Origin: a bacterium
GTDB taxonomy: Bacteria > Patescibacteriota > Microgenomatia > JAMCZE01
Assembly: GCA_021836035.1 (NCBI GenBank)
Contig: JAKBJL010000001.1
Location: 138,142-202,141 of the forward strand
Length of the DNA: 64,000 nt
Reading direction: 5' to 3'
Below the pieces are notes generated by a model. It searched no databases. It saw nothing but the letters and a program-made list of their open reading frames with translations, and had not been told where the DNA came from. The first letter of the stretch is position 1; each line of letters begins with the position of its first letter. Shown in pieces: positions 13,253 to 41,488 of the stretch. A program made the translations under genes and the position numbers.

Positions 13253-14113
13253 ATGCGGCGGTTGTTAATTTGTTCTTTATTTCTCGTCCTTAGCGGTTAC
13301 ATTATTAATTTAGCCAAAAATGATCATGTAGCATTAGCGGCAGAAAACCCCGGCCAATTCCGTTGTCTCTGGTACACATCCGGTTCGAGCTATTGTGGCA
13401 CGGACATAAACGGAAATTCCTGTCAGTCGGGATATAGTGAAGTTCCCCAAATTTGTCTGGAAATAAAAAACCCCTCGGAATGTGACTCCGCTTCCTTTGG
13501 TTGTGTAGAAAAAGCCGGACCCCGGTATAGTTGTAAAAAGAATCAGGGGTGTGTACAGGACCCAAACGGTTACGATAGTTTGACTTCTTGCCAAAATACC
13601 TGTAAAGAACTCGGGGCTGTTAAATGTCCTGAAGGGTGTACCACATATGGCTTGGGTAGCGTCTGCTATGCAGAACCATTAGATATACTTCTTCCGAAAC
13701 CCTGCGAGAGCACTCTCTGTATCCCCTCGGCCGGAGATAAATACACTCAGTATTACTATGATCAAAAAAGTAAGTTTTGTTACTCCGTCAGGCGTGATTT
13801 GAGTCCGGTTTTTCTTTGCGTCGAAGACGGTAGTTGCCAAACCGCTATCGGCACAATATTCGCCAGCCCCGAGGATTTGGTTAAAGTCATTATGCAACTA
13901 GTGATAGGGTTGGTCGGGGGCGTTGCGCTTCTAGTGCTAATTTTAACCGGTTATCAGCTAATGACCTCCTCCGGTGATCCGCAAAAATTAGCGGTTGCTA
14001 AAGAACTAATTGTTTCCGTTATAACCGGTATTCTCATGATCGTTTTTTCCATGGTATTATTACAGGCAATCGGAGTGGATATCTTAAAAATTCCCGCGCT
14101 GGTCGCGCCCTAA
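13253..14113 (+). CDS. Secreted Cys-rich protein with a C-terminal two-helix VirB2/TrbC-like pilin module
   Basis: Signal peptide and about 26 Cys, then GLVGGVALLVLILTGYQLMTSSGDPQKLAVAKELIVSVITGILMIV. This C-terminus is paralogous to the three downstream small proteins. Confidence 0.5.
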   Translation: MRRLLICSLFLVLSGYIINLAKNDHVALAAENPGQFRCLWYTSGSSYCGTDINGNSCQSGYSEVPQICLEIKNPSECDSASFGCVEKAGPRYSCKKNQGCVQDPNGYDSLTSCQNTCKELGAVKCPEGCTTYGLGSVCYAEPLDILLPKPCESTLCIPSAGDKYTQYYYDQKSKFCYSVRRDLSPVFLCVEDGSCQTAIGTIFASPEDLVKVIMQLVIGLVGGVALLVLILTGYQLMTSSGDPQKLAVAKELIVSVITGILMIVFSMVLLQAIGVDILKIPALVAP

Positions 14114-14114
14114 A

Positions 14115-14465
14115 ATGAGATTCCCGGGTTTTAGAACCATCGAGCTGCCCAACGGCTTCCCTACCGGAGGCTTGAGTATTATTGCTACGATCATCGTCAA
14201 TTTAGTATTGCTAGCCCTGATTATTATCTTTATTCTCGCCTTTTCTTACCTGGTTATCGGCGGTCTTAAGTGGATTGCCTCCGGCGGCGACAAACAAGCC
14301 CTTGCTTCCGCCCGGTCTGCTATTACTTATGCTGTACTTGGACTTGTACTTGCGCTGGTTTCTTTTGCCATAATTAACTTTGTCTCCTGCTTTTTTGGCA
14401 TTTATCTTGGTTTAGGAGGTGGCTGTTGGTCTACTGCCCAAATTACCCATGGGCTTACTCCATAA
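14115..14465 (+). CDS. Small two-helix membrane protein, VirB2/TrbC-like pilin candidate (paralog 2)
   Basis: A hydrophobic helix, a loop (IGGLKWIASGGDKQALASARSAI), a second helix, and a GLTP terminus. Starts 1 nt after the upstream stop. Confidence 0.5.
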   Translation: MRFPGFRTIELPNGFPTGGLSIIATIIVNLVLLALIIIFILAFSYLVIGGLKWIASGGDKQALASARSAITYAVLGLVLALVSFAIINFVSCFFGIYLGLGGGCWSTAQITHGLTP

Positions 14466-14485
14466 AACTATTATTAGTCACTTCT

Positions 14486-14518
14486 TGACAGCCTCCGAAA
14501 ATCATGCCATATTAAATA
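14486..14518 (+). promoter_or_regulatory. Candidate sigma70-like promoter for the third pilin-like gene
   Basis: TTGACA at 14486-14491 and an extended TATTAAAT -10 element about 17-19 nt downstream. A GAAGGGGG ribosome-binding site sits ahead of the ATG at 14575. Confidence 0.3.
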
Positions 14519-14574
14519 TAGACGAGAAGCAGGGTCCAGTTATGCTACAACCATAAGTGGCGAAGGGGGTGAAT

Positions 14575-15003
14575 ATGAGAGATTTAAGAAAATTAATTAC
14601 TACCGCTACAATATTAGCCAGCGGCTTATATTTTGCTGCGCCCGTTTTTGCCCAAAATATAAATCTTTGCCCCACTAACGGTGGTAACCTATGCTCGCTC
14701 ACGATCCCTGCGGTTATTACCGGTCTTATCCAATTTGTTTTAATAGTCGCTTTCCTTCTGGCCTTTGCCTTTCTAGTCATGGGAGGCATTAGGTGGATTT
14801 TAAGCGGTGGCGATAAAGCAGGAACGGAAGCGGCCAAGGGGACTATCACTGCGGCTCTTATCGGCCTAATTGTTGTCCTGGTTGCTTGGGCTATTCTCAA
14901 TTTGGTTAAAACTTTCTTTGGCATTAATTTTGATCTCGGTTCATTGGCCATACCAACCATAACCAATCCGGCAACAAATCCTAACCACGGAATAACCCCA
15001 TAG
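14575..15003 (+). CDS. VirB2/TrbC-like pilin candidate (paralog 3) with a cleavable signal peptide
   Basis: MRDLRKLITTATILASGLYFAAPVFA signal, then FLVMGGIRWILSGGDKAGTEAAKGTITAALIGLIVVLVAWAI. Start moved to the ATG that has a ribosome-binding site; the listed ORF starts at an upstream GTG. Confidence 0.5.
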   Translation: MRDLRKLITTATILASGLYFAAPVFAQNINLCPTNGGNLCSLTIPAVITGLIQFVLIVAFLLAFAFLVMGGIRWILSGGDKAGTEAAKGTITAALIGLIVVLVAWAILNLVKTFFGINFDLGSLAIPTITNPATNPNHGITP

Positions 15004-15015
15004 GCCCGTTCGGTA

Positions 15016-15048
15016 AAAACCCGCCCGAATATCAAAGGCGGGTTTTTG
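15016..15048 (+). terminator. Rho-independent terminator
   Basis: aaaacccgcc - cgaatatcaaag - ggcgggtttt followed by a T-rich run. It lies directly after the TAG stop at 15003. Confidence 0.6.
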
Positions 15049-15066
15049 GTGTGTTATACTAAAAAG

Positions 15067-15396
15067 GTGAACGGTTGTGATTGGAATGCATTAAAAGGTG
15101 GCGGAGGTACGGTTCCAACACTTCCCTGCCTAGCGGAGTTTTTTGTGCGGATTATCGGCGCCCTTTTTCTCTTTTTGGGAGCGGTAAGCTTGCTATTTTT
15201 ACTTTATGGTGCCGGGCGTTTCGTTATTTCTTCAGGGGATCCAAAGGCTATAGCCGGAGCCCGTAACACTATGACTTACGCTCTCCTTGGTCTTGTGCTT
15301 ATACTTATCTCCTTCGCCATTCTCCGTTTCGTCGGGGGTTTCCTGGGGCTTCCCGAAGATACCCTCTTAAACTTCAGGCTCTGGGTCGGTCCTTAA
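15067..15396 (+). CDS. VirB2/TrbC-like pilin candidate (paralog 4); start codon uncertain
   Basis: LYGAGRFVISSGDPKAIAGARNTMTYALLGLVLILISFAIL matches the paralog consensus. The listed GTG start at 15046 lies inside the upstream terminator, so a downstream start is more likely. Confidence 0.4.
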   Translation: MNGCDWNALKGGGGTVPTLPCLAEFFVRIIGALFLFLGAVSLLFLLYGAGRFVISSGDPKAIAGARNTMTYALLGLVLILISFAILRFVGGFLGLPEDTLLNFRLWVGP

Positions 15397-15442: not shown

Positions 15443-17089
15443 ATGAAAAAACTGGGAACGGTCGCGATCCTGGTCCTGTCTTTTTTCTTTTTGACAGCTT
15501 CTTCTGTTTTGGCCCAAACCAACGCCCAACGAAGGACAACTTGCGTCCAGGCCTGTCCAGCCGGAAACGGGGCCGCAGCCTGTGTAGCTAATTGCTATCA
15601 ACTTTACCCCCAAAACCAGAATAATACGCCTATCGAAAACCGCGCTGCGGAAGGCCTTTGGCAGGGAACTCCTATTGATCCGACGCTCCCCCTTTATCAA
15701 AAACAGGTTGAGGAACAGCAGCAAAAAGGCGGTGCTTATGAATGGATGAGCCAGGTAACTTTTAACTATCTGGCTTTGGCGATCACTAATAAAATTGCCG
15801 GCAGCCCCGTGACCGGACCTAACGGCAACGTTACCGGTTATCGGGGGGGGGCGATTAATCTTTTTGCTTCCCTGACCGGAACAATGTATGCTAATAAGCC
15901 GGCTTCTACAGGACAATATGTCCAATATTTGGCGCAAAACGCCGGCTTTCCCAATCTTGTTCCGGTAGCTTACGCCCAAAGCGGCGGAATTGGTTTTCAA
16001 GGATTAAATCCGATCCTACAAATTTGGCAGGTGGTCCGTAATTTAGCTTACCTGGCTTTTGCCGTGATCTTTGTTATTATCGGTTTGATGATCATGCTCC
16101 GGGTGAAGATTGATCCCAAGACTGTAGTTTCCATCCAAAACGCCCTGCCGAAAATCTTTTTGTCCTTAATTTTAATTACTTTTTCCTACCCTATCGCCGG
16201 ATTTCTAATTGATTTAATGTATGTATTAATTGGCGTGATTATCAGTCTTTTTGCCGGCGCTTTCGGTTCTTTTGATGTCACGGGTTTTAGACAAAATATA
16301 CAATATAAAACCATTTTTGAGTTTGTCGGTACCAACCTTTTTATCATGCCATCTTTCCAGAGCGGAAAATCCATCAATGATATTATTGTCGCCTTAACCG
16401 GAAACATCCCCGGTGTTTCTAATCTTTTTGGTTTTGTCGGCGGGGTTATTGGCGGGCTCATAATCTCTCTTGCCATTCTTTACGCCCTTTTTAGAACCTG
16501 GTTGATGCTTCTGGGCGCTTATATCAATATTATTATCGGCGTGATCCTTTCGCCCCTGGCGATGCTTGCCGACGCTATTCCCGGCCAGAGCGGCTTTTCC
16601 GCCTGGCTTCGTTCCATGCTTTCTAATCTCTTGCAGTTCCCTCTGGTTATTACTTTGCTCCTTTTTGGCGGCGGTTTGGTTTCCATGTCTAACCAATTCC
16701 AGCCTTCTCAAAACCCGGGTGGACCTTTTGTTCCGCCACTTATCGGAGGCAGCGATCCCAATGCGATCCCCGCCCTTATCGGTATTGGTATACTACTGAT
16801 GATCCCGAAAGCGGGAGCCATGTTGCAAGAATGGTTAAAATCTCCGCCGTTTAAACACGGTATGGCCTGGGCCGAAGCAGTAGGCTGGGCTTATTCTCCG
16901 TACGCAGGGGGTCTATTAGGGCAACCAAGGGGTAGAGAGGCTGCTGCGCAAGCAGAACGCGGTGGTTTACCACGAGGAATTTGGGATCGTTTATCCCCCC
17001 TGCCCGGAGCTGCTGCCACTGCAGCTAGCGGAGCATTAGCCCGAAGAAGATCTCCCACTGGTGGTTCGCCTTCAGCTACTACACCTTAA
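15443..17089 (+). CDS. VirB6/TrbL-like polytopic membrane protein
   Basis: Signal peptide, an extracytoplasmic domain of about 180 aa, at least six TM helices and a hydrophilic C-terminal tail. Lies immediately downstream of the pilin-like paralog array. Confidence 0.5.
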   Translation: MKKLGTVAILVLSFFFLTASSVLAQTNAQRRTTCVQACPAGNGAAACVANCYQLYPQNQNNTPIENRAAEGLWQGTPIDPTLPLYQKQVEEQQQKGGAYEWMSQVTFNYLALAITNKIAGSPVTGPNGNVTGYRGGAINLFASLTGTMYANKPASTGQYVQYLAQNAGFPNLVPVAYAQSGGIGFQGLNPILQIWQVVRNLAYLAFAVIFVIIGLMIMLRVKIDPKTVVSIQNALPKIFLSLILITFSYPIAGFLIDLMYVLIGVIISLFAGAFGSFDVTGFRQNIQYKTIFEFVGTNLFIMPSFQSGKSINDIIVALTGNIPGVSNLFGFVGGVIGGLIISLAILYALFRTWLMLLGAYINIIIGVILSPLAMLADAIPGQSGFSAWLRSMLSNLLQFPLVITLLLFGGGLVSMSNQFQPSQNPGGPFVPPLIGGSDPNAIPALIGIGILLMIPKAGAMLQEWLKSPPFKHGMAWAEAVGWAYSPYAGGLLGQPRGREAAAQAERGGLPRGIWDRLSPLPGAAATAASGALARRRSPTGGSPSATTP

Positions 17090-28463: not shown

Positions 28464-28805
28464 TTAAGAAAGAAGCTGGGCGCGGTGCAAAATCTTTTCC
28501 ACCTCCTGAGTTATCTCGATTCTGGCAGTCGTCGCCGCTTTAGTTTTTGCTAAAAAAACCAGTTCGGTGTTTTGGGGTATCCGGTTAAGAAAAGGGTCTA
28601 CGGCGTCCGCTAGTTTCCTTTTAATCTCATGGCGAACCACGGATTTTTTATCCACCTTTTTACTGACGATAAAGGCAGCTTGGCGGCCTGGGACTTTGCC
28701 GTAAGAAACCAGCAAACCAAAAGAGGGGGAATCATACAATTTCCCGGATTTACGGATGCGCTTAAATTCTCTCCTTAAAGGAATCAGATTTTTACGGGGA
28801 AGCAT
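28464..28805 (-). CDS. rnpA: RNase P protein component
   Basis: 113 aa basic protein. LRREFKRIRKSGKLYDSPSFGLLV...AAFIVSKKVDKKSVVRHEIKRKLA is RnpA-like. Confidence 0.8.
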   Translation of the reverse strand: MLPRKNLIPLRREFKRIRKSGKLYDSPSFGLLVSYGKVPGRQAAFIVSKKVDKKSVVRHEIKRKLADAVDPFLNRIPQNTELVFLAKTKAATTARIEITQEVEKILHRAQLLS

Positions 28806-28870
28806 TTATAACTACTAATGGCAAATAGCCGTTGGCCAACAGCCTTGGGCCGCCTGCCTTAAACTGTTTA

Positions 28871-29008
28871 CTATATGGTTATTCGTTTTCTTCCTTTAAG
28901 CGTTCTCCGATGCATGAGCTTGCGCCCGCTATGTGTAGCGTTGCGCTGAAGAAAGCCGTGTTTTCTCTGTCTTTTTAATTTTTTCGGCTGCCAGACTCTT
29001 TTGGGCAT
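28871..29008 (-). CDS. rpmH: 50S ribosomal protein L34
   Basis: MPKRVWQPKKLKRQRKHGFLQRNATHSGRKLMHRRTLKGRKRITI, 45 aa, too short for the ORF track. Found by manual translation upstream of rnpA. Confidence 0.8.
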   Translation of the reverse strand: MPKRVWQPKKLKRQRKHGFLQRNATHSGRKLMHRRTLKGRKRITI

Positions 29009-29087
29009 AGCCTAATTATATCCGGCCGTTCTCTGCGAGACAATAGTGTCTTTGGCAATTTGTTATAGTTCTGCCCACTTGAAAAAA

Positions 29088-29096
29088 TGTGGATAA
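29088..29096 (-). promoter_or_regulatory. Consensus DnaA box in the dnaA promoter region
   Basis: tgtggataa, the reverse complement of TTATCCACA, lies 19 nt upstream of the dnaA start. Confidence 0.55.
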
Positions 29097-29114
29097 CTTG
29101 TAAGATGCCGTCGT

Positions 29115-30503: not shown

Positions 30504-30761
30504 CTTACCCAAACTGTCCACAAACTGCCGGGAATTATCCACAAAGATATCAACAAGAAAAGTTCAATTATCAACAGAGATAATCTTAAGCTTAAAGCTA
30601 ATAGTTAATGGCTAATAGGTTAATAGATGACAAGAACAAAATAAAATGCATTTATCAACATTATAAATCAGACTGGCCAGGCTGGGCTGCCCACAAATAC
30701 ACAAAGACTACTAACAAACAAATACTAATTGTAAATAGGAAAGGGGGCGGCTAAGATTACA
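30504..30761 (+). promoter_or_regulatory. Candidate oriC: a DnaA-box cluster plus an AT-rich unwinding region in the dnaA-dnaN spacer
   Basis: Perfect TTATCCACA at 30537-30545. Box variants TGTCCACAA (30516-30524), TTATCAACA (30569-30577 and 30652-30660) and ATATCAACA. An AT-rich tract at 30585-30670. Confidence 0.6.
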
Positions 30762-31901
30762 ATGATGAAACTAGAAATATTACAGGAAAATTTGCTGAAG
30801 GGTCTCTCTATGGTAGGACGGGTGATCACTTCCAAGCCGCAAATGCCCGTACTGGCAAACATTCTATTGGAAACCGATAACGGCAGATTAAAACTCAGCG
30901 CTACGGATTTGGAAATCAGCATTACCACCTTAATCGGAGTCAAAATTCTTAAAGAAGGCAAATATACCATTCCGGCTAAAACTTTCGCGGAACTGGTCGG
31001 TAGCCTGCCTCCCGGGAAAGTGGAGATGGAATTAGAAGAAGGCCAGTTGGCGATAACCGCCGGCCGGTTTAAAGCCAAAGTTAACGGTGTACCGGCGCAG
31101 GAGTGGCCACTAAAGGCGATGGAAGGTAAAAAAACCGCAGGTTGGAAATTGGAAATCGCCGCGGAGGAATTCATTGTCGGTGTTGCCTGTACTTCCTTTG
31201 CTGCCGCCGCAGACGAGGGTCGGCCTGTACTTACCGGAATCTTATTTAAATTAACCGATTCCGGTTTAACCATGGTGGCTACTGACGGTTTTCGCTTATC
31301 GGTAAAAAAACTGGCAGCCGTAAAGGCGGAAGGAAAAGGGGAAGAAACAAGATCCTTTATTATTCCAGTGAAAGCGCTACAGGAGGTTGCCCGCATTTTG
31401 AGCGAGAATAAAGAATTAAAGATATTAAAAATCAATCTTACGGAAAACAGCGCGGATTTTGATTTGGGAGATACCCAGCTTTCTGCCCGTTTAATTGAGG
31501 GGCTTTATCCTGCATATGAAAAGATTATTCCCGGCGCTCCGGTGATTAAAGCCCGGGTCGGACGGGAAGAATTAGCTTCCGGGATCCGGACAGCCGGGGT
31601 TTTTGCCCGCGACAGCGCTAATATCGTCAAATTTGTTTTAAACAAATCTCAATTTTTAGTCAAAGCGGTAGCCGCTCAAGTAGGAGAGAATGAAAGCGAA
31701 ATTGACGCTAAAATCGAAGGGATAGAAGAGGAATTGGCAATTGCTTTTAATTTCCACTATCTATTGGATCTTTTAAATTGTGCCGGGAAAAGCGAAGAAC
31801 TGACTTTGGGTTTTTCCGGTCCTCTGGCCGCCGGGATGTTTAAAATCTCCGACGATCAGAGCTTCCTGCATATTATTATGCCTGTTCGGGTGCAGAGCTA
31901 G
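30762..31901 (+). CDS. dnaN: DNA polymerase III beta sliding clamp
   Basis: MKLEILQENLLKGLSMVGRVI...LANILLE...LKLSATDLE, a three-domain 379-aa protein. Lies next to dnaA. Confidence 0.85.
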   Translation: MMKLEILQENLLKGLSMVGRVITSKPQMPVLANILLETDNGRLKLSATDLEISITTLIGVKILKEGKYTIPAKTFAELVGSLPPGKVEMELEEGQLAITAGRFKAKVNGVPAQEWPLKAMEGKKTAGWKLEIAAEEFIVGVACTSFAAAADEGRPVLTGILFKLTDSGLTMVATDGFRLSVKKLAAVKAEGKGEETRSFIIPVKALQEVARILSENKELKILKINLTENSADFDLGDTQLSARLIEGLYPAYEKIIPGAPVIKARVGREELASGIRTAGVFARDSANIVKFVLNKSQFLVKAVAAQVGENESEIDAKIEGIEEELAIAFNFHYLLDLLNCAGKSEELTLGFSGPLAAGMFKISDDQSFLHIIMPVRVQS

Positions 31902-33729
31902 CCTCTTTTTCCCTTTGTTTTTTAGCGGCGATGAGCTCCTCGGGCTTACTGGTGATGAGTTCGTGTTCTTCGGGGGAGGCGACCACCTGTATGGCGACAT
32001 GCGAGGAGCCGGCAAAGAAAAGGCCTTGGCCGACATTGGCTGAAAGCAGAAGGCTTTTTTCTCCCTCGGAAAGATAAAATATCTGCGCCACTTTATCAAT
32101 CGCCGCCGGTGACTGTTTCATCAGCATTTGAATACTGCTGTTGGTAACAATGGTTTTACCCAGGTCGGTGGCGAGGAAATCTTCGATGTCCTGGGTAATC
32201 GTCGTTAGCCCCAGGTAATATTTGCGGGCGCGTTTAGCAAAACCCCATAAAAATTCGGCGCTGTTCTGGTTTTTCATTAAATACCAGCCTTCATCGACGA
32301 TTAAAATCCGCCTTTTCATTTTCCTTTTTATCTGGCTCCAGACATAATCCATAATGATAAAAATTGCCAAGCTGCGCATTTGATCCTCCAGGTTTTTAAA
32401 GGAGAATACGGTAAAAGAATTATTGAGATTCACGGTCGAGCGCTGGTTAAAGACGCCGCCGAAACTGCCTTTGACAAATTTTTCCAGGCGCAAAGCCAGA
32501 TTTTGGGCTATTTGCGTTTCCATCCCGATCAGTGTCCGATAAAGGTCTTCGAGAAGCGGCGGTTCGTTTCTGTGGGTAGCCGGATCATAGGTGATCCCTT
32601 TTTGTTTATAAGTCAGCTCCAGGGCGTTGTGCAAAATAGCATCTTCTTCGGCGGATTTTGTTTCGACCATAATTTTAAGAAGCCGCGCCAGGGTAAAACC
32701 GATTTTTAGCTGCAGTTCGTTCTCTGCTTCTTCACCGGAGCCGGATAAATCGAAAGGGTTGATATGGGTATCGCTGCCGAAAGCAAAGGAAATATAATCG
32801 CCGCCCACAGAATCGGACAGGCTTTTATATTCCTCTTCCGGATCGACAATAATCACATCCGTACCGAACATCAGAGAACGCAAAGCTTCTAATTTGACTA
32901 AAAAACTTTTTCCGCTGCCGCTTTTTCCTAAAACTACTTCATTGGCGTTTTCTAAAGAAAAACGGTCAAAGATAATCAGCGATCCGTTATGTTCGTTGAG
33001 GCCGTATAAAATTCCAGAATTAGCGGTTAGTTCCGAAGAGGTAAAAGGAAAGGTGGTAGCGAGCGACGTGGTATCCATATTGCGGGTGATCATCAGTTTG
33101 TCCAGACAAGTAGGAGAAGTAGTTTTAAAACCGTCCTCCATCTGGAGGGTCGCCGGCTTGCTGATAATCAAAAGCGCTCCTAGGGTGGAGGAGACCTCTT
33201 TAGTTAACTGGTTTAACTGTTCGATGCTGTCGCTGCTGATAGTGACATAAAGCCCGAATTGGTAAAACTTTTCCGCACCTTTGGCCAGTTGTTCCTGAAG
33301 ATTTAACGCGTCATCAAGAGCTACCTGGACATTGGGGTCAATTACTTTGCCGCGCTTGATATCGCTTTCAATGGTTGCTTCCATTTCTGCAATTTTCCGT
33401 TTCATATCGGAGAGGATCTCCTTGGACTCAACGGGATAAATAAAGATGGAAACGTCCAGACTGCTGTTGAAATTAATAAGCGGCGCCAGCCAATTGGCGC
33501 TGACAAACCGCGGGTAGCCGGCGACAAAAAGGGTGCGGTAAAATTTTTCCCCGATTTTTAAATAATCAAAATCAACTTCGATGGCGGCCGGGGCGATGAT
33601 ATCCTGGACGGTAACCATCCCGGCAGCCAGGGATTTGTCAGGGCCTTCCGGTACGCTTTCGGGCTGGAAGCGCTTTACCAGAGGGATGTTAATTTTGGGC
33701 AGTTTAACCATAAGAGAATCTTTAATCAT
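31876..33729 (-). CDS. VirB4/TrbE/CagE-family T4SS ATPase (C-terminal two thirds)
   Basis: CagE/TrbE/VirB4 signature IIAPAAIEVDFDYLKIGEKFYRTLFVAGYPRFV. Walker A GKSGSGKS. Walker B RRILIVDEGW. RKYYLGLTTITQ. Confidence 0.75.
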   Translation of the reverse strand: MIKDSLMVKLPKINIPLVKRFQPESVPEGPDKSLAAGMVTVQDIIAPAAIEVDFDYLKIGEKFYRTLFVAGYPRFVSANWLAPLINFNSSLDVSIFIYPVESKEILSDMKRKIAEMEATIESDIKRGKVIDPNVQVALDDALNLQEQLAKGAEKFYQFGLYVTISSDSIEQLNQLTKEVSSTLGALLIISKPATLQMEDGFKTTSPTCLDKLMITRNMDTTSLATTFPFTSSELTANSGILYGLNEHNGSLIIFDRFSLENANEVVLGKSGSGKSFLVKLEALRSLMFGTDVIIVDPEEEYKSLSDSVGGDYISFAFGSDTHINPFDLSGSGEEAENELQLKIGFTLARLLKIMVETKSAEEDAILHNALELTYKQKGITYDPATHRNEPPLLEDLYRTLIGMETQIAQNLALRLEKFVKGSFGGVFNQRSTVNLNNSFTVFSFKNLEDQMRSLAIFIIMDYVWSQIKRKMKRRILIVDEGWYLMKNQNSAEFLWGFAKRARKYYLGLTTITQDIEDFLATDLGKTIVTNSSIQMLMKQSPAAIDKVAQIFYLSEGEKSLLLSANVGQGLFFAGSSHVAIQVVASPEEHELITSKPEELIAAKKQREKEASSAPEQA

Positions 33730-33759
33730 TATTATATATGAAGAAGGGAACCTTGAGAA

Positions 33760-34437
33760 TTACTGGGTTGAGATTGCCGGAGAAGTGTAAGGGACGCTGC
33801 CGACCAGCTCTGTTCCTTCGGCGCCGGGATTATAAATAGTGTAAAAAAGCTCGATCAATTCCTGGGTGTTAAGCTGCCGGGCGCGCAGTCCCAGGCGCCC
33901 GAGCTGTCGGTAGATATGTTCTGCCTTAGGGGCTAAAGCGACCTTGGCCTTTTCGATGATCGTTTCTACCGGCAAAGGCAAGCCGGTTTGTTTAATCAAA
34001 AGCTTTGCCGAGCTGGAAACCCCCAATTCCAGGGAGCTGAAAGGGATGCAAATGTAGAATTTTTTGTCCAGGACGTTGTTTTCTTTGACTGTTTTGACGA
34101 TAAAATCACGGTATTTGGCAATCTGGTTTTTAAGAAGGGCGTTCTGTTGTTCATCCTCTGCTTTCTGAAGCTGGGATACGTAGGAGGAAATATCTTTACG
34201 TTTACTCCTGATGACGATCTGAATGGGGAAAGTGAGTGAATTTAAAAGGCCGGCATAAGCGTAAATAATTGCGTCCTGTTCCATTTCGGACAAAAGGCCG
34301 AAGTTGACGGCGGTAGTCTGGATGGTCAGGGTAACGGAACCGTCTTTAAGAATGATTAAATTATCCCGGATATCATAGATTTCCAGGTGTTCCTGAGTAG
34401 CCCCGCGGATAGCAACTTTACTAAGGTCGACGGGCAT
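33760..34437 (-). CDS. VirB4 N-terminal-domain-like protein, encoded separately 30 nt upstream of the ATPase ORF
   Basis: Soluble 225 aa protein (DIRDNLIILKDGSVTLTIQTTAVNFGLLSEMEQDAIIYAYAGLL), resembling VirB4/TraC N-terminal regions. The gap to the next ORF contains a stop codon and a possible AAGG ribosome-binding site. Confidence 0.45.
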   Translation of the reverse strand: MPVDLSKVAIRGATQEHLEIYDIRDNLIILKDGSVTLTIQTTAVNFGLLSEMEQDAIIYAYAGLLNSLTFPIQIVIRSKRKDISSYVSQLQKAEDEQQNALLKNQIAKYRDFIVKTVKENNVLDKKFYICIPFSSLELGVSSSAKLLIKQTGLPLPVETIIEKAKVALAPKAEHIYRQLGRLGLRARQLNTQELIELFYTIYNPGAEGTELVGSVPYTSPAISTQ

Positions 34438-34476: not shown

Positions 34477-35205
34477 GTGTTGGGACTTTTCTTTGCCCTG
34501 CTAACTTTTATTTCCACCTTAAGCGGCGGTTGGGCGGCCATCCGTTTTCGCGACCGGCTCCATTTGGTTTTGGGTTTTGCTTCCGGGGCAGTAATAGCCA
34601 CGGCCCTATTTGAAATTCTGCCGGAGGTTATTAGCGAAGCGCAAAAAATGCTCCTGCCCCTCAATAATCTCCTGTTTTTCAGCGCTGTCGGTTTTTTATT
34701 TTTCCATTCTTTAGAGAGAATTATTGTCTTTCGCTCGGGAAATCATTCGGAGGAAGGCGGTAACCGCCACGTCGGTACTTTATCGGCAACCGGTTTTTCC
34801 GTACATTCTTTTTTTGACGGGCTGGGCATCGGTTTAGGCTTTTTAACCAGCATTCAGTTGGGATTGGTTATTTCCCTGGCGGTTCTGGCTCACGATTTTT
34901 CCGACGGCCTCAATACAGCTACGGTGATATTAAAAAATCAGGGGAAAAAGTCCCAGGCTTGGCGTTGGCTTTTAATTGATGCGCTGGCCCCGCTTTTGGG
35001 GCTGGCGGTGTCTTTTTATTTCAACGGTCTTACCGCGATCCTGCCGTACATTTTGGCATTCTACTTCGGCTTTTTTCTTTATCTGGGCGCGGCTGATCTT
35101 TTACCCGAAGCCCACCATCGTCATAGCTCTTATCTGACACTGTTTACTACCGTTTTGGGATTTGCCGCGGTTTTTATTATCTCCGCCCTGCTCCGCGGTT
35201 TATAA
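34477..35205 (+). CDS. ZIP-family divalent metal transporter (ZupT-like)
   Basis: Eight TM helices and a histidine-rich loop. AVLAHDFSDGLNTA resembles the ZIP signature helix. Confidence 0.65.
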   Translation: MLGLFFALLTFISTLSGGWAAIRFRDRLHLVLGFASGAVIATALFEILPEVISEAQKMLLPLNNLLFFSAVGFLFFHSLERIIVFRSGNHSEEGGNRHVGTLSATGFSVHSFFDGLGIGLGFLTSIQLGLVISLAVLAHDFSDGLNTATVILKNQGKKSQAWRWLLIDALAPLLGLAVSFYFNGLTAILPYILAFYFGFFLYLGAADLLPEAHHRHSSYLTLFTTVLGFAAVFIISALLRGL

Positions 35206-35953: not shown

Positions 35954-37171
35954 TTAAGCCGCAGCCGATTGCTTTTCCTGAAGGCCTTCGGTTTGACTGC
36001 CGTCTGCTTCCGCGCTTTCCTTGGCCTCAATTTCTAACGGGGTAACGACATTGCCGTCTAATTTAATTTCTAAAATGTCGAAATGATAACCCTCTTTATC
36101 CATTTCCAAATAATAAGTGCCGCTTTCCAGCGGGGTGCTGGCTAAAAACTGGCCGACTTTATTAGTCCGCAGGGCCCGGACGCTAGTTCCCTGGATGTTT
36201 TTAATAATAACGATAACCCCGGGAAGAATTTGGTCCTGGGCATCTTTAACTACCCCGGAAATCAGGTTGGGAGTGGTAATTTGGAAAATGCCGGCGTAGG
36301 CCGGCTTGGGCGGTTTCTTTTCCGTTTTGGGCTGGGCGGGCTTGGCGTAAGGCGAATATCTTTTGGGGAAGGTCAGGTTTGCCGCTTTAATTTCCGTTGC
36401 CTCCTTGATTGTCGACTGCGGCAGCTTGGCTTGCTCCCGGATTTTTACCATCTCGTCGATGGTAATTGTCGCCTTTGGGGCCGTCTCTTTTGGTGCTTCT
36501 TGAACCCGCGCCTGTACCTGTTCTTCTAGCGGGGGTATTTTTTCCTCCGGCGACGGCTCTTCCGACGGGACTTTCGCGTTTTGATCACCGGAAAATTCCT
36601 TTAACAAATCTTCGCGGATGCGGATGAGGTCCTCGATGCCCATCTGTCGTTTTTCGTTGGGTTTTTCTTCAGGCGGGGGCAGGGGATTTAGCGCTACCTG
36701 CGGAGCCTCTTCCGCCGCCGCTTCTTCCGGTTCGGTCTGGGGCAGGGTTTGCAGATACTCCTGCAGGCGGGTGTCAGTAGGCGCCGAAGCCGCGGCTTGC
36801 TCTAAAGACACCGGCGGGGCTAAAGGTTCTTCGGTGGTCTCGGGAATATTCCAGACTCCCGCCTGTTTGCGCCCGCTTTTTTTCCAAAGATAAAGTGTCG
36901 GGCGGTAGATAGAGCGGAAGAAATTGATGACCCAGATGTCCAGCGGCCGCTCATTGACCGGGACAAAGGCAAAAGTGACCCCGGAAACAATAAAAAGGAT
37001 TGCCAGGGGGAATTTGATAATAGCATACCAATCGGAAGCATAGAAGATAAAAGCGGTAATAAATCCGGCCGCCAGGTAGCCGAATTGTTTCAGGGTCATA
37101 TCGCCGACCAGCTTAAACTCAAAACCGGTAATGTTCTGAGGGACAGGATGCTGCTCCATGGCAAATTTCAT
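35954..37171 (-). CDS. PrgI/VirB3-like two-TM N-terminal module fused to a Pro/Glu-rich linker and a C-terminal CarboxypepD_reg-like beta-sandwich domain
   Basis: N-terminus FKLVGDMTLKQFGYLAAGFI...FVPVNERPLDIWVINFFRSIYRPTLYLW resembles PrgI-family (VirB3-like) proteins of Gram-positive T4SS. C-terminus VKDAQDQILPGVIVIIKNIQG...GTYYLEMDKEGY. Confidence 0.4.
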   Translation of the reverse strand: MKFAMEQHPVPQNITGFEFKLVGDMTLKQFGYLAAGFITAFIFYASDWYAIIKFPLAILFIVSGVTFAFVPVNERPLDIWVINFFRSIYRPTLYLWKKSGRKQAGVWNIPETTEEPLAPPVSLEQAAASAPTDTRLQEYLQTLPQTEPEEAAAEEAPQVALNPLPPPEEKPNEKRQMGIEDLIRIREDLLKEFSGDQNAKVPSEEPSPEEKIPPLEEQVQARVQEAPKETAPKATITIDEMVKIREQAKLPQSTIKEATEIKAANLTFPKRYSPYAKPAQPKTEKKPPKPAYAGIFQITTPNLISGVVKDAQDQILPGVIVIIKNIQGTSVRALRTNKVGQFLASTPLESGTYYLEMDKEGYHFDILEIKLDGNVVTPLEIEAKESAEADGSQTEGLQEKQSAAA

Positions 37172-37443
37172 TGTAAAGGCAAAACGATGAAAAACAAGAG
37201 GGTCACCTTTTCATAGAAAGACTAATTAGGATTTGATACGCACCTGGGCTACCCGGCCGCTGGATTTTAAAATATCACCCTTCTTTACAAAATAACACTA
37301 TTCCTATCTGTTCCGGAAACCTTGCCATTTCTTCCGGCGGCGACTTCCACCCTGTTTCTAAAAAAGATAGAATTGCAAAGCTTTTTTCCTACCCTACCTG
37401 AATATCCTCAATTTTTCGAAATGCCGGGCTATCCAATTCCTTC

Positions 37444-37668
37444 TTATACGCAGATGGTTCTGAGAGAACCAAAATAGATTAATTTTCCCCCCGGCTTGAT
37501 TGCCCTGGCGGTTTTCGCTTCTGCTTTCCTTTGCGATTCTTTGTCCGCGAGCATATGACTACAACCAAAATCTGAAGCCGTGTCAAGGTGTTTGTCGGGA
37601 AAGGGTAATTTTGTGATGTCCGCTTGAAGACATACCGGTTTTACTCCGAGCCCTTCGGCTTTTTACCT
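37444..37668 (-). pseudogene. Remnant of a class I SAM-dependent methyltransferase gene
   Basis: Minus-strand translation reads LQADITKLPFPDKHLDTASDFGCSHMLADKESQRKAEAKTARAIKPGGKLIYFG (motifs II-III and post-II of a Methyltransf_11 fold). No start codon and no N-terminal half. Confidence 0.5.
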
Positions 37669-37697
37669 AGCTTCAACAACTTCTTCCTCGTGAATAT

Positions 37698-37961
37698 TTA
37701 TCGTACTTCTGGTCTTTTGCGGGCCAGCCGATTAGCAATCCTGCCGAAACCGCCACCGGTATCTGGAACCCTATCGCCGGTTTTTAATAATCCGCCCCAA
37801 TAGCTTTTTATAATTATCCCTGTCGGTTCGTTTCCTAGCCAGGCGATATTTGCGGGAGCAGCCACTATTTGGTTCCAGGTTGCACCCCCGTTATTATCCG
37901 GGGAATTAAGGCGGGTAGAGATGTGACCGCTCGCAACAAATACTACCGGGCGGATACCCAG
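37698..37961 (-). pseudogene. Remnant of a BNR (Asp-box) repeat protein gene
   Basis: An 87-codon open frame with no start codon reads ...RLNSPDNNGGATWNQIVAAPANIAWLGNEPTGIIIKSYWGGLL..., and SPDNNGGATW fits the SxDxGxTW Asp-box. Bounded upstream by an in-frame stop. Confidence 0.4.
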
Positions 37962-38003
37962 TTAGTAATAATCGGATTATTGATCTTATGGTAAGATGAA
38001 TTT

Positions 38004-40706
38004 ATGGCCCAGACGAAAGCGGATACACCGATCGTTTCTGTTCCGGCAGGAAACGGTCCTGTTTTTAAGATTTCCGAATTGCAAAAATTGCGGGCACGCC
38101 GTCACGGTCCGGCGAAAAATAGATTAGCCGAAGCGCTCCGCCGGTCTATTTTAACTTACAACAAAAATCTTTTCCGGCGTCTGGCTTTAGCTCCCGGCGA
38201 CGAAAATGTGCAGACAGTGGTGGACAACTATATCGATGACGTTACGGATAATGTGGCCCAGGAACTGGCAAACGGCCGGGGACTGGAAGAAACGGTAGCG
38301 GAAACCCTGCGGGAGAATATTACGGAAGAAGAAAATATTTCCTGGGAGCCGCAGGCGGTTGCGGAAACGGCCAAGGAAGTAGCCGAAGTTGTCGACCCGG
38401 CGACAATTGCAGAGACTATTGCCGAGGAAAGAGCCCAGGAGCAAACACAGGAGGAAGAACAAGTTCCAGCACAAGGGCAAGCGGAGGGGGAAAAAGAAAA
38501 CATTCCGCCCTTAATCTTTCGGGGCTATACGCCGCCGACCAGCCAGAGACAGGAGGCCCGGACTGCGGCACCGAAAGAAGCACCTATTCACTATACCCCG
38601 GGGGTAGGTACCGGAGCCGGTGAGAAAAAACTGACGAAAGCCCGGGAGGAGATCAAAAGCCTACGGGAACGTTACGAGAAAGAGGAGCCCTCCCTTTTAC
38701 AGTCGCCGGGTCGGAGTTTGGGGCGGATCGCCGGCAGATTTGGGATTCAACTGGGACGCCGTGGACAGGTTGTTTCTCCAGAGCCGGAAGAAGGGTTTTT
38801 ACCCGGAGTACCTATGGCTCCGGTTTCTGCAGCAGCGGCAGGGAAGGAAGCCGGAAGACCCGGAACCCTTCCCGCGAAAATGCCGGATATCCAACCGGCG
38901 CAAACGGAAACAGCCCGCGAGAAAACGGCGGCAAAAGTGGCAAAAATCCAAGCCCGGCGCGAAGCCATGCTCCGCCCGGAAACCCAGGAAGCTTTGGGCG
39001 AACCGGAAGGTATCTACGGGGCTGTCCCGGGGGAACGGCCCCGAACGGCTCAGGAATTTATCCGCCAAACCCACCGCGAAAGCCCTGAGGAAATCAGGAT
39101 ACGGGCCCCGGGACCTGCCGGCTGGCTAAGCAGTATCAAAGACCGGATTTTTACCAGCCTGGGGTTGGGAAAGAAAAAAACCGCGGAAAAAGTCGCCGGT
39201 ACGGTAACGGCAGCCGCTAAGATCGCCGCCGGTAAAGAAGCACTGGCCGGGACGGGGAAAATTTTAATTTCGGCAGCGGCTAAGAAATTTGCCGGAACTG
39301 CATTGGGGACAATTCTGGGGGGACCGGTAGGGGCTGCTCTGGCCTGGGGGATCACGCTGGTAGCCGATAGACTATGGCCCGAAATTAAAAAACTATTAAA
39401 GGTTTTGGGCGGAGCGGCCGGTGCGGCATTTATGATGCTTATGACCCTTCTGGCCAAAGCCGGTTTGGCCGGTTGGGTTGCAGGCGGAGCCTTAACAGGA
39501 GCCTTAATTGGTAGTTTTATTCCTGGTGTCGGGACCATCGGCGGTTTTATCATCGGTGGTTTTGTCGGCGGGGTAGCGGGATATATTTCCCAGATGGTGG
39601 CGGCTACTAGCGCTGCCGGGGCGGGAGCAGGAGGGGTTGCGGCAACGGCGGCGACGGCTATCAGCGGTACCGTTCCTTCCCTGATGGGAATTGCGACCGG
39701 CTTAGGGGGAACGGGTCTTTTGGGAACTGCCGCCGTTTCTATTACTACGGGCCTGTCGGCAACTTTTCTTACCGCTACGATGCTTTTGGGCCTGCGCGAT
39801 GCGGTTTATCAGGATCCGGTTTATAACGCTCAGGTCGGAGCTGATATCGCCGCGCCGGTCGGGGTTTATGTAAAGAAGGTTGGTTCACCGGATACGGTAG
39901 CAAATGATCAGATCGGCAAAACGGAAATTGCCTATCTAGCCGATGTCGTTCAGGCCAGGCAAATTAAAAGCGCGACCGTCAAAGACGAAATTATTATTAA
40001 TAAAAAGGGAACTCCCGGCACCCCGATCGTTATTTTCGGTCCGCAACCATACCAGCAGGGCAAAATGTACGATTATAAAATGCCTCTGACTCCCCAAATG
40101 CAGGATTCGTTGGTAATTAATAAATTCACCATTGAAGGAACTATGGTTAATTCTGTCGGAAAGGAAGAACAGTTTACCGCCTCCGCTTCTTTCCCGATCA
40201 AAGTCGGTACGCCGTCTATGGAAGTTTTTTCCTGCCCGGTAATTAGCGGCCGGCTGTGCGAACACTCCTTAAGTAATGGTTCACCGGCTCATTGCGACAC
40301 CAATTATCGGAGCAATCCGGAACTAGATCGGATTTGCCCGGGAGGAACGAATTATTGGCAGGGCAACGAAACGGCTATTGATGTTTGTTCCACCCAGGGC
40401 GCGCCTGTTTATTTACCCTCAATTGACGGGCAGGCGGTTAATTGGCATTATGAACATGACGGCAATGATAATAATTACCCCGGCCAAAAGTACCGCCAAT
40501 TTTCGGCGACGGTTAACGGCGTTCCCTATGTTTTACAATTGCACCACATGATTAATGAGCAGGTAACCGCCAGCACTCTGGCTTCCGGGACAGTGGTAGG
40601 ACACTTGGCAGCATTTCCCGGCGGCAATACGCCGCATTCCCATATTCAGATCAAACGTAACGGCACTTTTATCTCCGCCGAAGAAGTTTTTAAAGGCTGC
40701 CTGTAA
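38004..40706 (+). CDS. Large membrane protein: acidic cytoplasmic N-terminal region, a Gly/Ala-rich multi-helix membrane region, and a C-terminal M23 (LytM-type) peptidase domain
   Basis: C-terminal NWHYEHDGND (HxxxD-like) ... LQLHHMINEQV ... PHSHIQIKRNG (HxH) matches M23 metallopeptidase motifs. A central run of glycine-zipper helices (GGPVGAALAWGITL..., GGFIIGGFVGGVAGYI). Confidence 0.55.
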   Translation: MAQTKADTPIVSVPAGNGPVFKISELQKLRARRHGPAKNRLAEALRRSILTYNKNLFRRLALAPGDENVQTVVDNYIDDVTDNVAQELANGRGLEETVAETLRENITEEENISWEPQAVAETAKEVAEVVDPATIAETIAEERAQEQTQEEEQVPAQGQAEGEKENIPPLIFRGYTPPTSQRQEARTAAPKEAPIHYTPGVGTGAGEKKLTKAREEIKSLRERYEKEEPSLLQSPGRSLGRIAGRFGIQLGRRGQVVSPEPEEGFLPGVPMAPVSAAAAGKEAGRPGTLPAKMPDIQPAQTETAREKTAAKVAKIQARREAMLRPETQEALGEPEGIYGAVPGERPRTAQEFIRQTHRESPEEIRIRAPGPAGWLSSIKDRIFTSLGLGKKKTAEKVAGTVTAAAKIAAGKEALAGTGKILISAAAKKFAGTALGTILGGPVGAALAWGITLVADRLWPEIKKLLKVLGGAAGAAFMMLMTLLAKAGLAGWVAGGALTGALIGSFIPGVGTIGGFIIGGFVGGVAGYISQMVAATSAAGAGAGGVAATAATAISGTVPSLMGIATGLGGTGLLGTAAVSITTGLSATFLTATMLLGLRDAVYQDPVYNAQVGADIAAPVGVYVKKVGSPDTVANDQIGKTEIAYLADVVQARQIKSATVKDEIIINKKGTPGTPIVIFGPQPYQQGKMYDYKMPLTPQMQDSLVINKFTIEGTMVNSVGKEEQFTASASFPIKVGTPSMEVFSCPVISGRLCEHSLSNGSPAHCDTNYRSNPELDRICPGGTNYWQGNETAIDVCSTQGAPVYLPSIDGQAVNWHYEHDGNDNNYPGQKYRQFSATVNGVPYVLQLHHMINEQVTASTLASGTVVGHLAAFPGGNTPHSHIQIKRNGTFISAEEVFKGCL

Positions 40707-40738: not shown

Positions 40739-41488
40739 TCAATATTCCGGCAGCGGCCCACTATTAGCTATAGGGGTAGCCATCTCGCTCCGTTTTTTAC
40801 GGAAGGGTTTTACTGCGGTAAGGAGGAAATAATTAGACAGCAATGAGACTCCCATAGCAGCCTGAACCAGTAAACGTCTCAGGGGAGAACGGTTCGGGAA
40901 AAGCCTAAAAACGTTGGGGTCGACTAATTTAATTCCTTCAGGAGCTAGGAATAAATTGTAGGAATTTCTTAAGGGGAAAATAATTCTTTTCGCTCTTTGG
41001 CTGAGGGTTCGGGATTTAGAATCTTCCGCATCGCTTCCGATAAGATCGTAGAACACCCCCGTTTTTATAAAGCAGCGAAGGGAATCCAGGCAAAGAGAAC
41101 GCAAGGTGTCGAGGTTGTTTTGGTCTAAACTTAAAATTCCTTGAAAACCAAGATTTTTTAAAGGGACTCCTTTCACAAATTTTTGTGTCCGGACAATATG
41201 GGAGCTTTCCGGTTCTGTACCCTGGGCGAGGACATATTCTTGCGGAACGATGGCTTTCTGACTATGGGGGCTTGCTATTTCCCGGGCAATTTCTTCCAGG
41301 CGCCTGAACTCTAGGGTTTTATTCAGAGCTTCCTGTACCGGTTTAGCCGGTACTTTTTGCTTGCCAATTTTTACGACCGGTTTTTCCTTTTGGGCGGGAA
41401 GGAAGACGTTGGTACCGACGCTTTCTGTTTGCCGGGGGTGCCCGGAGAGATCAAAAGGCAGAAAGGGATTTTCCCCAGAATGATCCAT
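40739..41488 (-). CDS. Hypothetical protein (249 aa)
   Basis: Open frame with typical codon usage and no confident domain. Confidence 0.4.
   Translation of the reverse strand: MDHSGENPFLPFDLSGHPRQTESVGTNVFLPAQKEKPVVKIGKQKVPAKPVQEALNKTLEFRRLEEIAREIASPHSQKAIVPQEYVLAQGTEPESSHIVRTQKFVKGVPLKNLGFQGILSLDQNNLDTLRSLCLDSLRCFIKTGVFYDLIGSDAEDSKSRTLSQRAKRIIFPLRNSYNLFLAPEGIKLVDPNVFRLFPNRSPLRRLLVQAAMGVSLLSNYFLLTAVKPFRKKRSEMATPIANSGPLPEY

Follow-up and report, generated by a model that had tools for sequence, protein, structure and literature searches.

VirB1 analogs of Gram-positive T4SS are membrane-anchored proteins with extracellular enzymatic domains (PMC12857230). In one of them, PrgK, the LytM domain is regulatory and is not the active enzyme (PMC12857230); having the M23 fold is therefore no guarantee that such a hydrolase uses it for catalysis. 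Epibiotic growth requires the Patescibacteria T4SS in the single species where this has been examined; the machine otherwise lacks an assigned role (PMC10633639, PMC11665869). VirB1 homologs in this phylum show little linkage to virB4 in the majority of classes, and the survey reporting this did not settle which enzyme opens the wall (PMC12102498). By that survey's account, peptidase and lysozyme homologs downstream of virB4 are essential for epibiotic growth of Ca. Southlakia epibionticum ML1 (PMC12102498, citing PMC10633639).

Here we analyse a 64,000-nucleotide stretch of the genome of an ultrasmall bacterium of the Microgenomatia (Patescibacteria/CPR) (contig JAKBJL010000001.1; hereafter the window), which encodes a 900-aa membrane protein close to genes for T4SS-like components. 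We consider this protein most probably to be the subunit that hydrolyses the cell wall for a chromosomally encoded T4SS-like apparatus of the Patescibacteria (Gram-positive-like) type, specifically an M23-only, sequence-divergent hydrolase of the VirB1/PrgK type that would be a functional analog rather than a sequence homolog of VirB1. The gene is complete and has an ATG start, with the boundaries and length given in the initial annotation, and an identical protein (P0001) is recorded in the MAG GCA_027371575.1. The features of the locus and of the protein are as follows.

13253..15396, plus strand: four T4SS pilin (VirB2-like) genes at 13253-14113, 14115-14465, 14557-15003 and 15046-15396 (Pfam T4SS_pilin 1.1e-7, 1.8e-6 and 5.5e-4; the fourth from the ORF list)
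15443..17089, plus strand: 548-aa multi-TM protein with 8-9 hydrophobic segments, candidate VirB6/PrgH-type translocon subunit
31876..33729, minus strand: VirB4-like ATPase of the Gram-positive CD1110/MPF_FATA type (NCBIfam conju_CD1110 E 1.3e-117; Pfam P-loop_TraG 3.9e-33)
33760..34437, minus strand: TraC-like 225-aa protein (precomputed PF26593)
35954..37171, minus strand: PrgI-like (VirB3-type) membrane protein with a C-terminal CarboxypepD_reg beta-sandwich (Pfam PrgI 1.4e-6, CarboxypepD_reg 1e-7)
38004..40706, plus strand: target gene, 900-aa membrane-anchored M23-type hydrolase, stop codon at 40704-40706
38004..39203, plus strand: residues 1-400, predicted cytoplasmic region (composition, 8-homolog alignment, full-length model)
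39204..39803, plus strand: residues 401-600, Gly/Ala-rich hydrophobic membrane region with glycine-zipper motifs (hydropathy, GxxxG enrichment, hhalign)
39864..40205, plus strand: residues 621-734, extracytoplasmic beta-sandwich stalk, CARDB/DUF11/adhesin-repeat-like (model m363cb2c2a24f, Foldseek, Pfam in relatives)
40218..40703, plus strand: residues 739-900, Cys-rich divergent M23/LytM-fold metallopeptidase module
40290-40292, 40380-40382, 40545-40547, 40635-40637 and 40641-40643, plus strand: invariant codons for H763, D793, H848, H878 and H880, respectively

These neighbours largely bear out the minimal T4SS-like set that had been proposed for the window: VirB4, PrgI and pilin genes are confirmed, as is a TraC-like gene, and the VirB6-like component remains a candidate. 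The 548-aa protein matches no Pfam entry and no family model; its orthologs (E 3e-87 to 3e-122) adjoin pilin arrays that hold target homologs, and orthologs of the window pilin genes flank target homologs in four loci (L085, L087, L089 and L094). The TraC-like gene always lies between PrgI and VirB4 in relatives and is kept in approximately 70 of 80 loci. The PrgI-like gene is divergent from the target gene, a pairing that recurs in the genome of the closest homolog (L082). The target gene, with PrgI 832 nt and VirB4 4.3 kb away, is located within a conserved origin-proximal region of the chromosome that includes the housekeeping genes ValRS, MPG and dnaA/dnaN. A methyltransferase pseudogene fills the 832-nt gap and separates the target from PrgI; an RNA element in this gap was considered and rejected, as Rfam gave no matches. 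With this pseudogene intervening, PrgI on the opposite strand and VirB4 at a distance, co-transcription with the T4SS genes is not assured.

The N-terminal 400 residues comprise, in order, a basic N-terminus (net +10), an acidic tract at residues 61-170 (29 D+E vs 5 K+R, net -24) and short conserved motif islands, which in an alignment of eight homologs include RERYEKEE..LLQSPGRSLGRIAGRFG and the juxtamembrane IKDRIFTSLGLGKKK. The acidic tract of the previously described cytoplasmic head is thus real, but a folded head is not supported: residues 1-400 are mostly disordered, helical or of low confidence, and the full-length model, with pLDDT mostly <50, shows no confident fold across residues 1-620. 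The following 200 residues contain 40 Gly and 44 Ala, with hydrophobic windows spanning approximately 420-598 and the anchor placed at approximately 417-598. GxxxG motifs are enriched here (14 vs 7.6 +/- 2.2 in shuffled sequences, 0.35% of which reach 14), in agreement with the glycine zipper proposed earlier. Its helices, however, are predicted at low confidence, with an uncertain number of TM segments, and homologs P0006 and P0010 retain approximately one TM segment each; a conserved helix bundle is therefore unsupported. Comparison with the membrane region of VirB4-adjacent hydrolases gave an hhalign probability of 93.9%, a value that TM composition can inflate.

Beyond the membrane region lie the stalk (residues 621-734, pLDDT 85-95), with Foldseek matches to CARDB and adhesin repeats and Pfam DUF11 matches in relatives, and the C-terminal module. 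We predict an N-in/C-out topology from the lack of an N-terminal signal peptide, the K/R-rich segment that precedes the first hydrophobic stretch, and the position of all six cysteines (744, 752, 764, 778, 795 and 899) within the ectodomain M23 module; three of these cysteines are kept in every family member. In this predicted topology, the anchor (aa ~420-598) and folded ectodomain (aa 621-900) reproduce the VirB1-like arrangement of a membrane anchor bearing an extracellular enzyme domain.

The assignment of the C-terminal module to M23, made in the initial annotation, holds by fold, catalytic residues and profile-profile homology, and not by direct domain search. Searched over its full length, the protein matches no Pfam family at E<=1 and falls short of the PF01551 gathering score; NCBIfam and PHROGs gave no M23 match, the sole PHROG match being weak (E 0.005) and to a family of unknown function; and neither single-sequence nor family-profile searches of PDB sequences retrieved an M23 entry. 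The ectodomain model (pLDDT 85.5, pTM 0.83) adopts an M23/LytM beta-fold, its best Foldseek PDB matches are M23 peptidases, and the structural matches include ShyA, Csd1-3 and DipM. H763, D793, H848, H878 and H880 are shared without exception by 58 family members, and D793 (AIDV), H848 (LHHM) and H878-x-H880 (HSH) align with the AIDI, YxH and HLH motifs of Pfam-verified M23 domains. Profile-profile alignment of the target subfamily with the Pfam-verified M23 regions of VirB4-adjacent proteins gave an hhalign probability of 94.4% (E 8.8e-8, 94 columns), and 9 of the 58 relatives themselves reach Pfam Peptidase_M23 (PF01551; best 3.8e-23). The link from target to M23 is transitive and structural, and is confirmed through the modelled fold, the invariant residues and this profile homology.

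In place of the canonical HxxxD motif, the target has H763-x29-D793: the D-4 position is occupied by Glu789 rather than His, and the invariant H763 precedes D793 by 30 residues and is followed by a Cys-rich insert. The H...D spacing is also variable in related Pfam-positive CPR domains. Zinc is putatively bound by H763, D793 and H880, with H763 as the presumed first ligand, and from the sequence and the model we predict peptidoglycan endopeptidase activity. A look for SLT or CHAP domains had been suggested as a further check; Pfam detects no SLT, lysozyme or CHAP domain in the target, whose ectodomain model contains only the beta-sandwich and the M23 fold. SLT or CHAP domains do occur in some relatives and in proteins encoded in the slot after VirB4, and relatives other than those that reach Peptidase_M23 add SLT, Amidase_2 or M14 domains.

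Relatives of the target were recovered solely by an exhaustive HMMER scan, which yielded 59 matches among 1.84 billion representative proteins, indicating a rare family. In a word-index homology search, the full-length query retrieved itself alone, probably because its Gly/Ala-rich region flooded the candidate list, and the C-terminal domain and family alignment retrieved nothing, though true relatives exist. Searching 185,579 species genomes with the target located no relative's locus, and the scan was repeated with VirB4. A metagenome scan with a 5-sequence alignment returned a single locus, which nearly duplicates the context of P0003.

Every informative homolog context adjoins PrgI, VirB4 or T4SS pilin genes, in four different arrangements, in line with the synteny expected from the initial annotation. 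In the window and for P0002, the gene is divergent from PrgI and near the TraC-like and VirB4 genes; P0003, P0004, P0007 and P0010 are encoded inside or beside pilin arrays; the genes for P0013 and P0020 directly follow VirB4, with overlapping stop and start codons; and P0014 shares its downstream genes with P0013 and P0020. Across 80 VirB4 loci we found 23 M23-like proteins, 13 of them encoded just after VirB4 (11 directly, 2 offset by ~160-780 nt) and 7 upstream of PrgI. In Microgenomates, the slot after VirB4 is occupied by proteins with M23 (10), CHAP (5), SLT_3 (2), Amidase_3, VanY or Peptidase_C39_2 domains, that is, by membrane-anchored proteins with interchangeable wall hydrolase domains. 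Secreted versions of the M23 module, approximately 200 aa in length, are encoded 2-3 kb downstream of VirB4 in L071, L077, L035 and L036. The closest VirB4 relatives (L005-L011) have no such hydrolase gene within 10 kb.

We propose that the anchor and cytoplasmic motifs would hold the enzyme at the VirB4/PrgI/pilin machine, from where the stalk would bring the M23 domain up to the peptidoglycan of the producing cell. Local cleavage of peptide cross-links could then open the wall for passage of the channel and/or the VirB2-like pilus. This function, with its catalytic activity, substrate bond, docking to T4SS partners and choice of the producer's wall as target, is inferred from the fold and the gene neighbourhood. 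Alternatively, working with the same machine, the M23 domain could cut host peptidoglycan at the epibiont-host contact, opening a route for pilus, effectors or nutrients. This possibility accounts equally well for the T4SS association and the intact catalytic residues, draws on the requirement for the Patescibacteria T4SS in epibiotic growth (PMC10633639, PMC11665869), and is consistent with the small secreted modules, which show that free, diffusible forms exist. We regard it as unlikely for the target itself, since an anchored protein with ~300 extracellular residues and a single stalk would have a short reach, its own wall being the nearest substrate, and known Gram-positive analogs act in cis (PMC12857230). 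In its fullest form, this reading would have the target placed at the VirB4/PrgI/pilin machine by its long cytoplasmic tail, as the part that breaches the wall for an essential T4SS-like 'feeding or attachment' apparatus of the epibiont. Were host-cutting to hold for the target and the small secreted paralogs of its relatives, the Patescibacteria T4SS would gain a concrete, assayable biochemical step.

The same gene contexts bear on the possibility that the target is a general growth or division endopeptidase, of the ShyA/MepM or LytM-like kind, whose proximity to T4SS genes is without functional meaning. Growth and division are common roles of M23 enzymes, ShyA, Csd1-3 and DipM are among the structural matches, and ValRS, MPG and dnaA/dnaN surround the gene in the window. 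Such a role is nevertheless improbable: T4SS-like neighbours recur in four arrangements across divergent genomes, including the start/stop overlap with VirB4, and 59 representatives in 1.84 billion proteins are fewer than a core growth enzyme would be expected to have. About as improbable, in our judgement, is a non-catalytic LytM scaffold or regulator, comparable to EnvC, DipM, SpoIIQ or the LytM domain of PrgK, that would form part of a channel wall or activate another hydrolase. Degenerate LytM domains characteristically lose metal or catalytic residues; in the present family all 58 sequences retain the five metal/catalytic positions unchanged, and the target contains no other hydrolase domain to regulate. 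Finally, we reject a phage tape-measure protein or tail-lysin remnant as exceedingly improbable: the length, Gly-rich hydrophobic middle and C-terminal M23 module of the protein, its weak PHROG match, and fold matches to, among others, phage tail proteins, lysins and a single tape-measure protein are suggestive of such an origin, but phage genes are absent from all contexts examined, as the initial annotation had noted for the window, no homolog in these contexts lies in a prophage tail module, tblastn against 50,697 phage records gave only two marginal matches to unannotated fragments (E 3e-3 and 7e-3), the viral fold matches share only the generic M23 fold at 14-20% identity, and the origin-proximal chromosomal location is conserved. 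No tblastn match was found in plasmids.

A wall hydrolase beside a monoderm T4SS is what specialists would expect, and the cell-wall-hydrolase assignment that we favour overturns nothing. It does offer, for Microgenomates, one answer to the question of which enzyme opens the wall, in the form of a membrane-anchored family whose members join a long cytoplasmic tail to one of several interchangeable wall-enzyme ectodomains, and of which the target would be an M23-only member invisible to current domain models. The assignment improves on a 'hypothetical protein' annotation, adds a probable missing subunit to the parts list of the machine and supplies a predicted soluble, well-folded ectodomain for expression and assay.

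Turning to the comparison with known systems, the target differs from canonical M23 enzymes (LytM, lysostaphin, ShyA, StM23 and NMB0315) in having six cysteines and neither an HxxxD motif nor a Pfam match. Long H-D spacing is also known from the LasA/beta-lytic subfamily M23A. SpoIIQ of the Bacillus subtilis SpoIIIA-SpoIIQ 'feeding tube' is a membrane protein with a degenerate, non-catalytic LytM domain that serves as a channel scaffold, whereas the target keeps the full catalytic set. PrgK of the Enterococcus faecalis plasmid pCF10, a DELTA-class VirB1-like protein, carries three ectodomains, LytM, muramidase and CHAP, of which the muramidase is active; the target instead combines a single M23 domain retaining all catalytic residues with a beta-sandwich stalk and a Gly-rich multi-segment anchor, and lacks SLT, muramidase and CHAP domains.

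TraG (pIP501), TcpG (pCW3) and Orf14 (Tn916), of the ALPHA/BETA classes, have the same presumed role as the target, and are encoded at T4SS loci and anchored outside the monoderm membrane (PMC12857230). Their catalytic domains, SLT/lysozyme-like together with CHAP or NlpC/P60, are all absent from the target, and their intracellular part is short or missing. The likeness to PrgK/TcpG-type hydrolases drawn in the initial annotation is upheld by fold and gene neighbourhood, and does not extend to the SLT and CHAP domains of the TcpG/TraG type. The peptidase and lysozyme homologs that directly follow virB4 in ML1, and the M23-containing VirB1 homologs of Patescibacteria, share both phylum and T4SS type with the target. 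The target itself has an M23 module that passes no HMM threshold and contains a Cys-rich insert of 29 residues, and its gene has shifted to the other side of PrgI. Its Microgenomates relatives encode M23 proteins in exactly the ML1-type slot beside virB4.

The protein under study is encoded at window positions 38004–40706 (+ strand, ATG start, 900 aa), exactly where the initial annotation had placed it, and an identical protein is on record in a metagenome-assembled genome (GCA_027371575.1, contig DAHXMT010000002.1). The domain search for M23 suggested in the initial annotation was negative: searches of the protein against Pfam, NCBIfam and PHROGs returned nothing meaningful, a PDB sequence search gave no match, and word-index homology searches recovered no relatives. 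With residues 590–900 as the query, exhaustive HMMER scanning of 1.84 billion representative proteins yielded only 59 relatives at E ≤ 1e-3. Seven of these (P0002–P0008; 35–48% identity) match across the whole ectodomain and are built like the target, with a long, charged stretch at the N-terminus, a hydrophobic segment rich in Gly, and the matching region at the C-terminal end. Nine family members reach Pfam Peptidase_M23 (best 3.8e-23), and others carry SLT, Amidase_2 or M14 domains (Pfam). By profile–profile comparison, the target subfamily aligns with Pfam-verified M23 regions at 94.4% probability (E 8.8e-8), pairing AIDV, LHHM and HSH with AIDI, YAHL and HLH. Built from 10 aligned sequences, an AlphaFold model of residues 590–900 reaches high confidence (pLDDT 85.5, pTM 0.83) and places a beta-sandwich (aa 621–734) before the C-terminal module, on which Foldseek is in agreement.

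Invariant columns among 58 aligned members include H763, D793, H848, H878 and H880, together with C744, C778, P805, W814 and C899. At the level of sequence, the five His/Asp positions match those of the M23 signature: motif-1 His and Asp, catalytic His, and HxH. The spacing departs from the canonical HxxxD (H763-x29-D793, with a Cys-rich insert between), and H763 is only a presumed metal ligand. Because of these invariant residues, the profile–profile match and the confident model with its Foldseek matches, the C-terminal module is identified as an M23-fold domain that keeps the full set of catalytic residues. The M23 domain proposed in the initial annotation thus stands by structure, profile homology and catalytic residues, but not by family models: the Pfam HMM does not report it and the HxxxD spacing is absent. 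All six cysteines of the target lie in this module, which fits an extracytoplasmic, disulfide-stabilised domain. In the stalk beta-sandwich (window 39864–40205), K667, D701 and T709 are invariant in the eight closest homologs, and fold matches are to CARDB and adhesin repeat domains carrying intramolecular ester bonds; a stabilising intramolecular cross-link is conceivable there, as pure speculation.

Turning to the remainder of the protein, residues 61–170 carry a net charge of −24 and follow a basic N-terminus, a composition that bears out the acidic region described earlier. The first 400 residues hold only short conserved islands in an alignment of 8 homologs, and residues 1–620 are of low confidence in the full-length model; we infer that the N-terminal part is largely a disordered cytoplasmic tail with docking motifs. 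The suggested glycine-zipper bundle holds in part: residues 401–600 contain 40 Gly, 44 Ala and 14 GxxxG motifs (7.6 ± 2.2 in shuffles), but this membrane region is modelled as helical without confidence. It is cut to approximately one TM segment in two homologs, and hhalign matches it to the membrane region of VirB4-adjacent hydrolases at 93.9%, a type of score that TM composition can inflate.

Gene order in the window runs from yidC, rnpA, dnaA and dnaN to a VirB4-like ATPase (NCBIfam conju_CD1110, E 1.3e-117), a TraC-like gene, a ZIP transporter, a methylpurine glycosylase (MPG) and a PrgI-like gene, then across an 832-nt gap to the target, an orphan ORF and a class I aminoacyl-tRNA synthetase. 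Individual features are as follows.

13.2–17.1 kb: four-gene T4SS pilin array and 548-aa multi-TM protein
14557–15003, + strand: fourth pilin gene, 148 aa, with signal peptide and pilin core GG.KW..SGGD
15443–17089, + strand: 548-aa protein with signal-like N-terminus and about 8 hydrophobic segments
34477–35205, + strand: ZIP transporter gene, between the TraC-like and MPG genes
35954–37171, − strand: PrgI-like (VirB3-type) gene, with C-terminal CarboxypepD_reg beta-sandwich after a Pro/Glu-rich linker
37447–37850, − strand: methyltransferase pseudogene (class I SAM, frameshifts and stop codons), inside the 832-nt gap (37172–38003)
40739–41488, − strand: 249-aa ORF directly downstream of the target, with no family match

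The fourth pilin gene makes the VirB2-like array (13253–15396) one of four genes; it is masked by a longer, spurious antisense ORF (14502–15035, − strand). The 548-aa protein has no Pfam match, and its orthologs (E 3e-87 to 3e-122) always lie beside pilin arrays in three loci holding target homologs (L085, L087, L089). It is a candidate VirB6/PrgH-type translocon subunit, a type described as 'scarce' in Microgenomatia (PMC12102498). In the 80 VirB4 loci of related genomes (L002–L081), the PrgI-like proteins are long (263–799 aa), and several end in the linker and CarboxypepD_reg beta-sandwich seen in the window; such a protein is a VirB3 fused to a large domain that is presumably extracellular. 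The stitched pseudogene fragments match Pfam Methyltransf_11 (E 1.2e-9). In L082, the locus of the closest homolog P0002, the window arrangement is repeated with only 85 nt between PrgI and the hydrolase, so the pseudogene is a lineage-specific insertion in decay, which may have separated two divergent promoters. The ZIP gene and the 249-aa ORF are both missing from the otherwise collinear L082 and are hence recent local insertions.

Synteny among relatives agrees with a T4SS association, family members P0002, P0003, P0004, P0007, P0010, P0013 and P0020 adjoining PrgI, VirB4 or pilin genes. P0003, P0004, P0007 and P0010 are found within or at the side of pilin arrays, where clear orthologs of the 548-aa protein are their neighbours (best E 3e-122). 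For P0013 and P0020, VirB4 is the preceding gene, and its stop codon overlaps their start codons. The hydrolase start overlaps the VirB4 stop by 4 and 8 nt in L091 (8001–11060) and L093 (4871–7783), respectively, suggesting translational coupling; a small protein with a Big_5 domain or of an uncharacterised family then precedes dnaN. P0014 has the same downstream genes, its contig ending upstream.

The closest VirB4 relatives (54–83% identity) belong to Patescibacteria in the Microgenomates group (Shapirobacteria, Curtissbacteria and Levybacteria among them), which identifies the source of the window as a CPR bacterium. PrgI, TraC-like and VirB4 genes form a near-universal operon in the 80 loci, most often in convergent orientation to dnaN and dnaA. 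Among the MAG records with this operon, many bear the title 'uncultured Gammaproteobacteria/Pseudomonadales bacterium', in conflict with gene content and other titles, and look like mislabelled submissions. In a large proportion of Microgenomates genomes, the operon lies beside replication-origin genes (window 28464–34437; most of L002–L081), a position unusually stable for a T4SS-like system; it is chromosomal core, not a mobile element.

An iterated profile of the C-terminal module found 23 proteins in the 80 loci: 13 on the strand of VirB4 and shortly downstream of it (11 directly, 2 offset by ~160–780 nt) and 7 upstream of PrgI, with 9 of 10 tested reaching Pfam M23. Same-strand ORFs in the slot after VirB4 (44 in all) carry M23 (10), CHAP (5), SLT_3 (2), Amidase_3, VanY and Peptidase_C39_2 domains (Pfam); the slot thus holds wall hydrolases with interchangeable catalytic domains. 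In the window lineage, the target has shifted from this slot to the far side of PrgI. Proteins of ~200 aa comprising a signal peptide and the M23-like module alone occur 2–3 kb downstream of VirB4 (L071 13951–14544; L077 14823–15458; L035 14472–15086; L036 14583–15215), so free, secreted forms exist alongside anchored ones. Within the 80 loci, the best sequence matches to the target are those of L071 and L077, which have its Cys-rich variant.

The best explanation is that the target is a membrane-anchored peptidoglycan endopeptidase serving the Patescibacteria T4SS-like machine; we infer its catalysis, its substrate, its topology and that it acts on the wall of its own cell. As the wall hydrolase of this machine, it would act on the cell's own peptidoglycan. 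Rival readings would direct the cutting at a host, make the protein a housekeeping M23 enzyme, or reduce its LytM domain to a non-catalytic scaffold. A phage remnant fares worst: as the initial annotation had noted for the window, no phage genes occur in any context of the target or its family, placing them outside prophage tail modules; tblastn gave two marginal hits in a phage collection and none in a plasmid collection, and viral fold matches are generic M23 lysins.

A T4SS-serving, membrane-anchored endopeptidase would be a functional analog of VirB1/PrgK, and a wall hydrolase here is what specialists would expect. Published work fits: the S. epibionticum T4SS is essential, with no recognisable coupling protein or relaxase and no known function (PMC10633639, PMC11665869). 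Also essential in this species are 'peptidase and lysozyme homologues' encoded downstream of virB4, and the association of VirB1 homologs with virB4 is poor in Patescibacteria (PMC12102498). The result closes an acknowledged gap in the parts list of the Patescibacteria T4SS and lends itself to direct testing. Gram-positive VirB1 analogs combine a membrane anchor with extracellular enzymatic domains, and PrgK, much of which is intracellular, includes a LytM domain (PMC12857230). The target contains neither an SLT nor a CHAP domain and is therefore no sequence homolog of VirB1, TrsG or CD419. It is distinctive in being M23-only and unseen by current family models, with a Cys-rich insert and a beta-sandwich stalk, and it agrees in position and architecture with the hydrolases of monoderm T4SSs.
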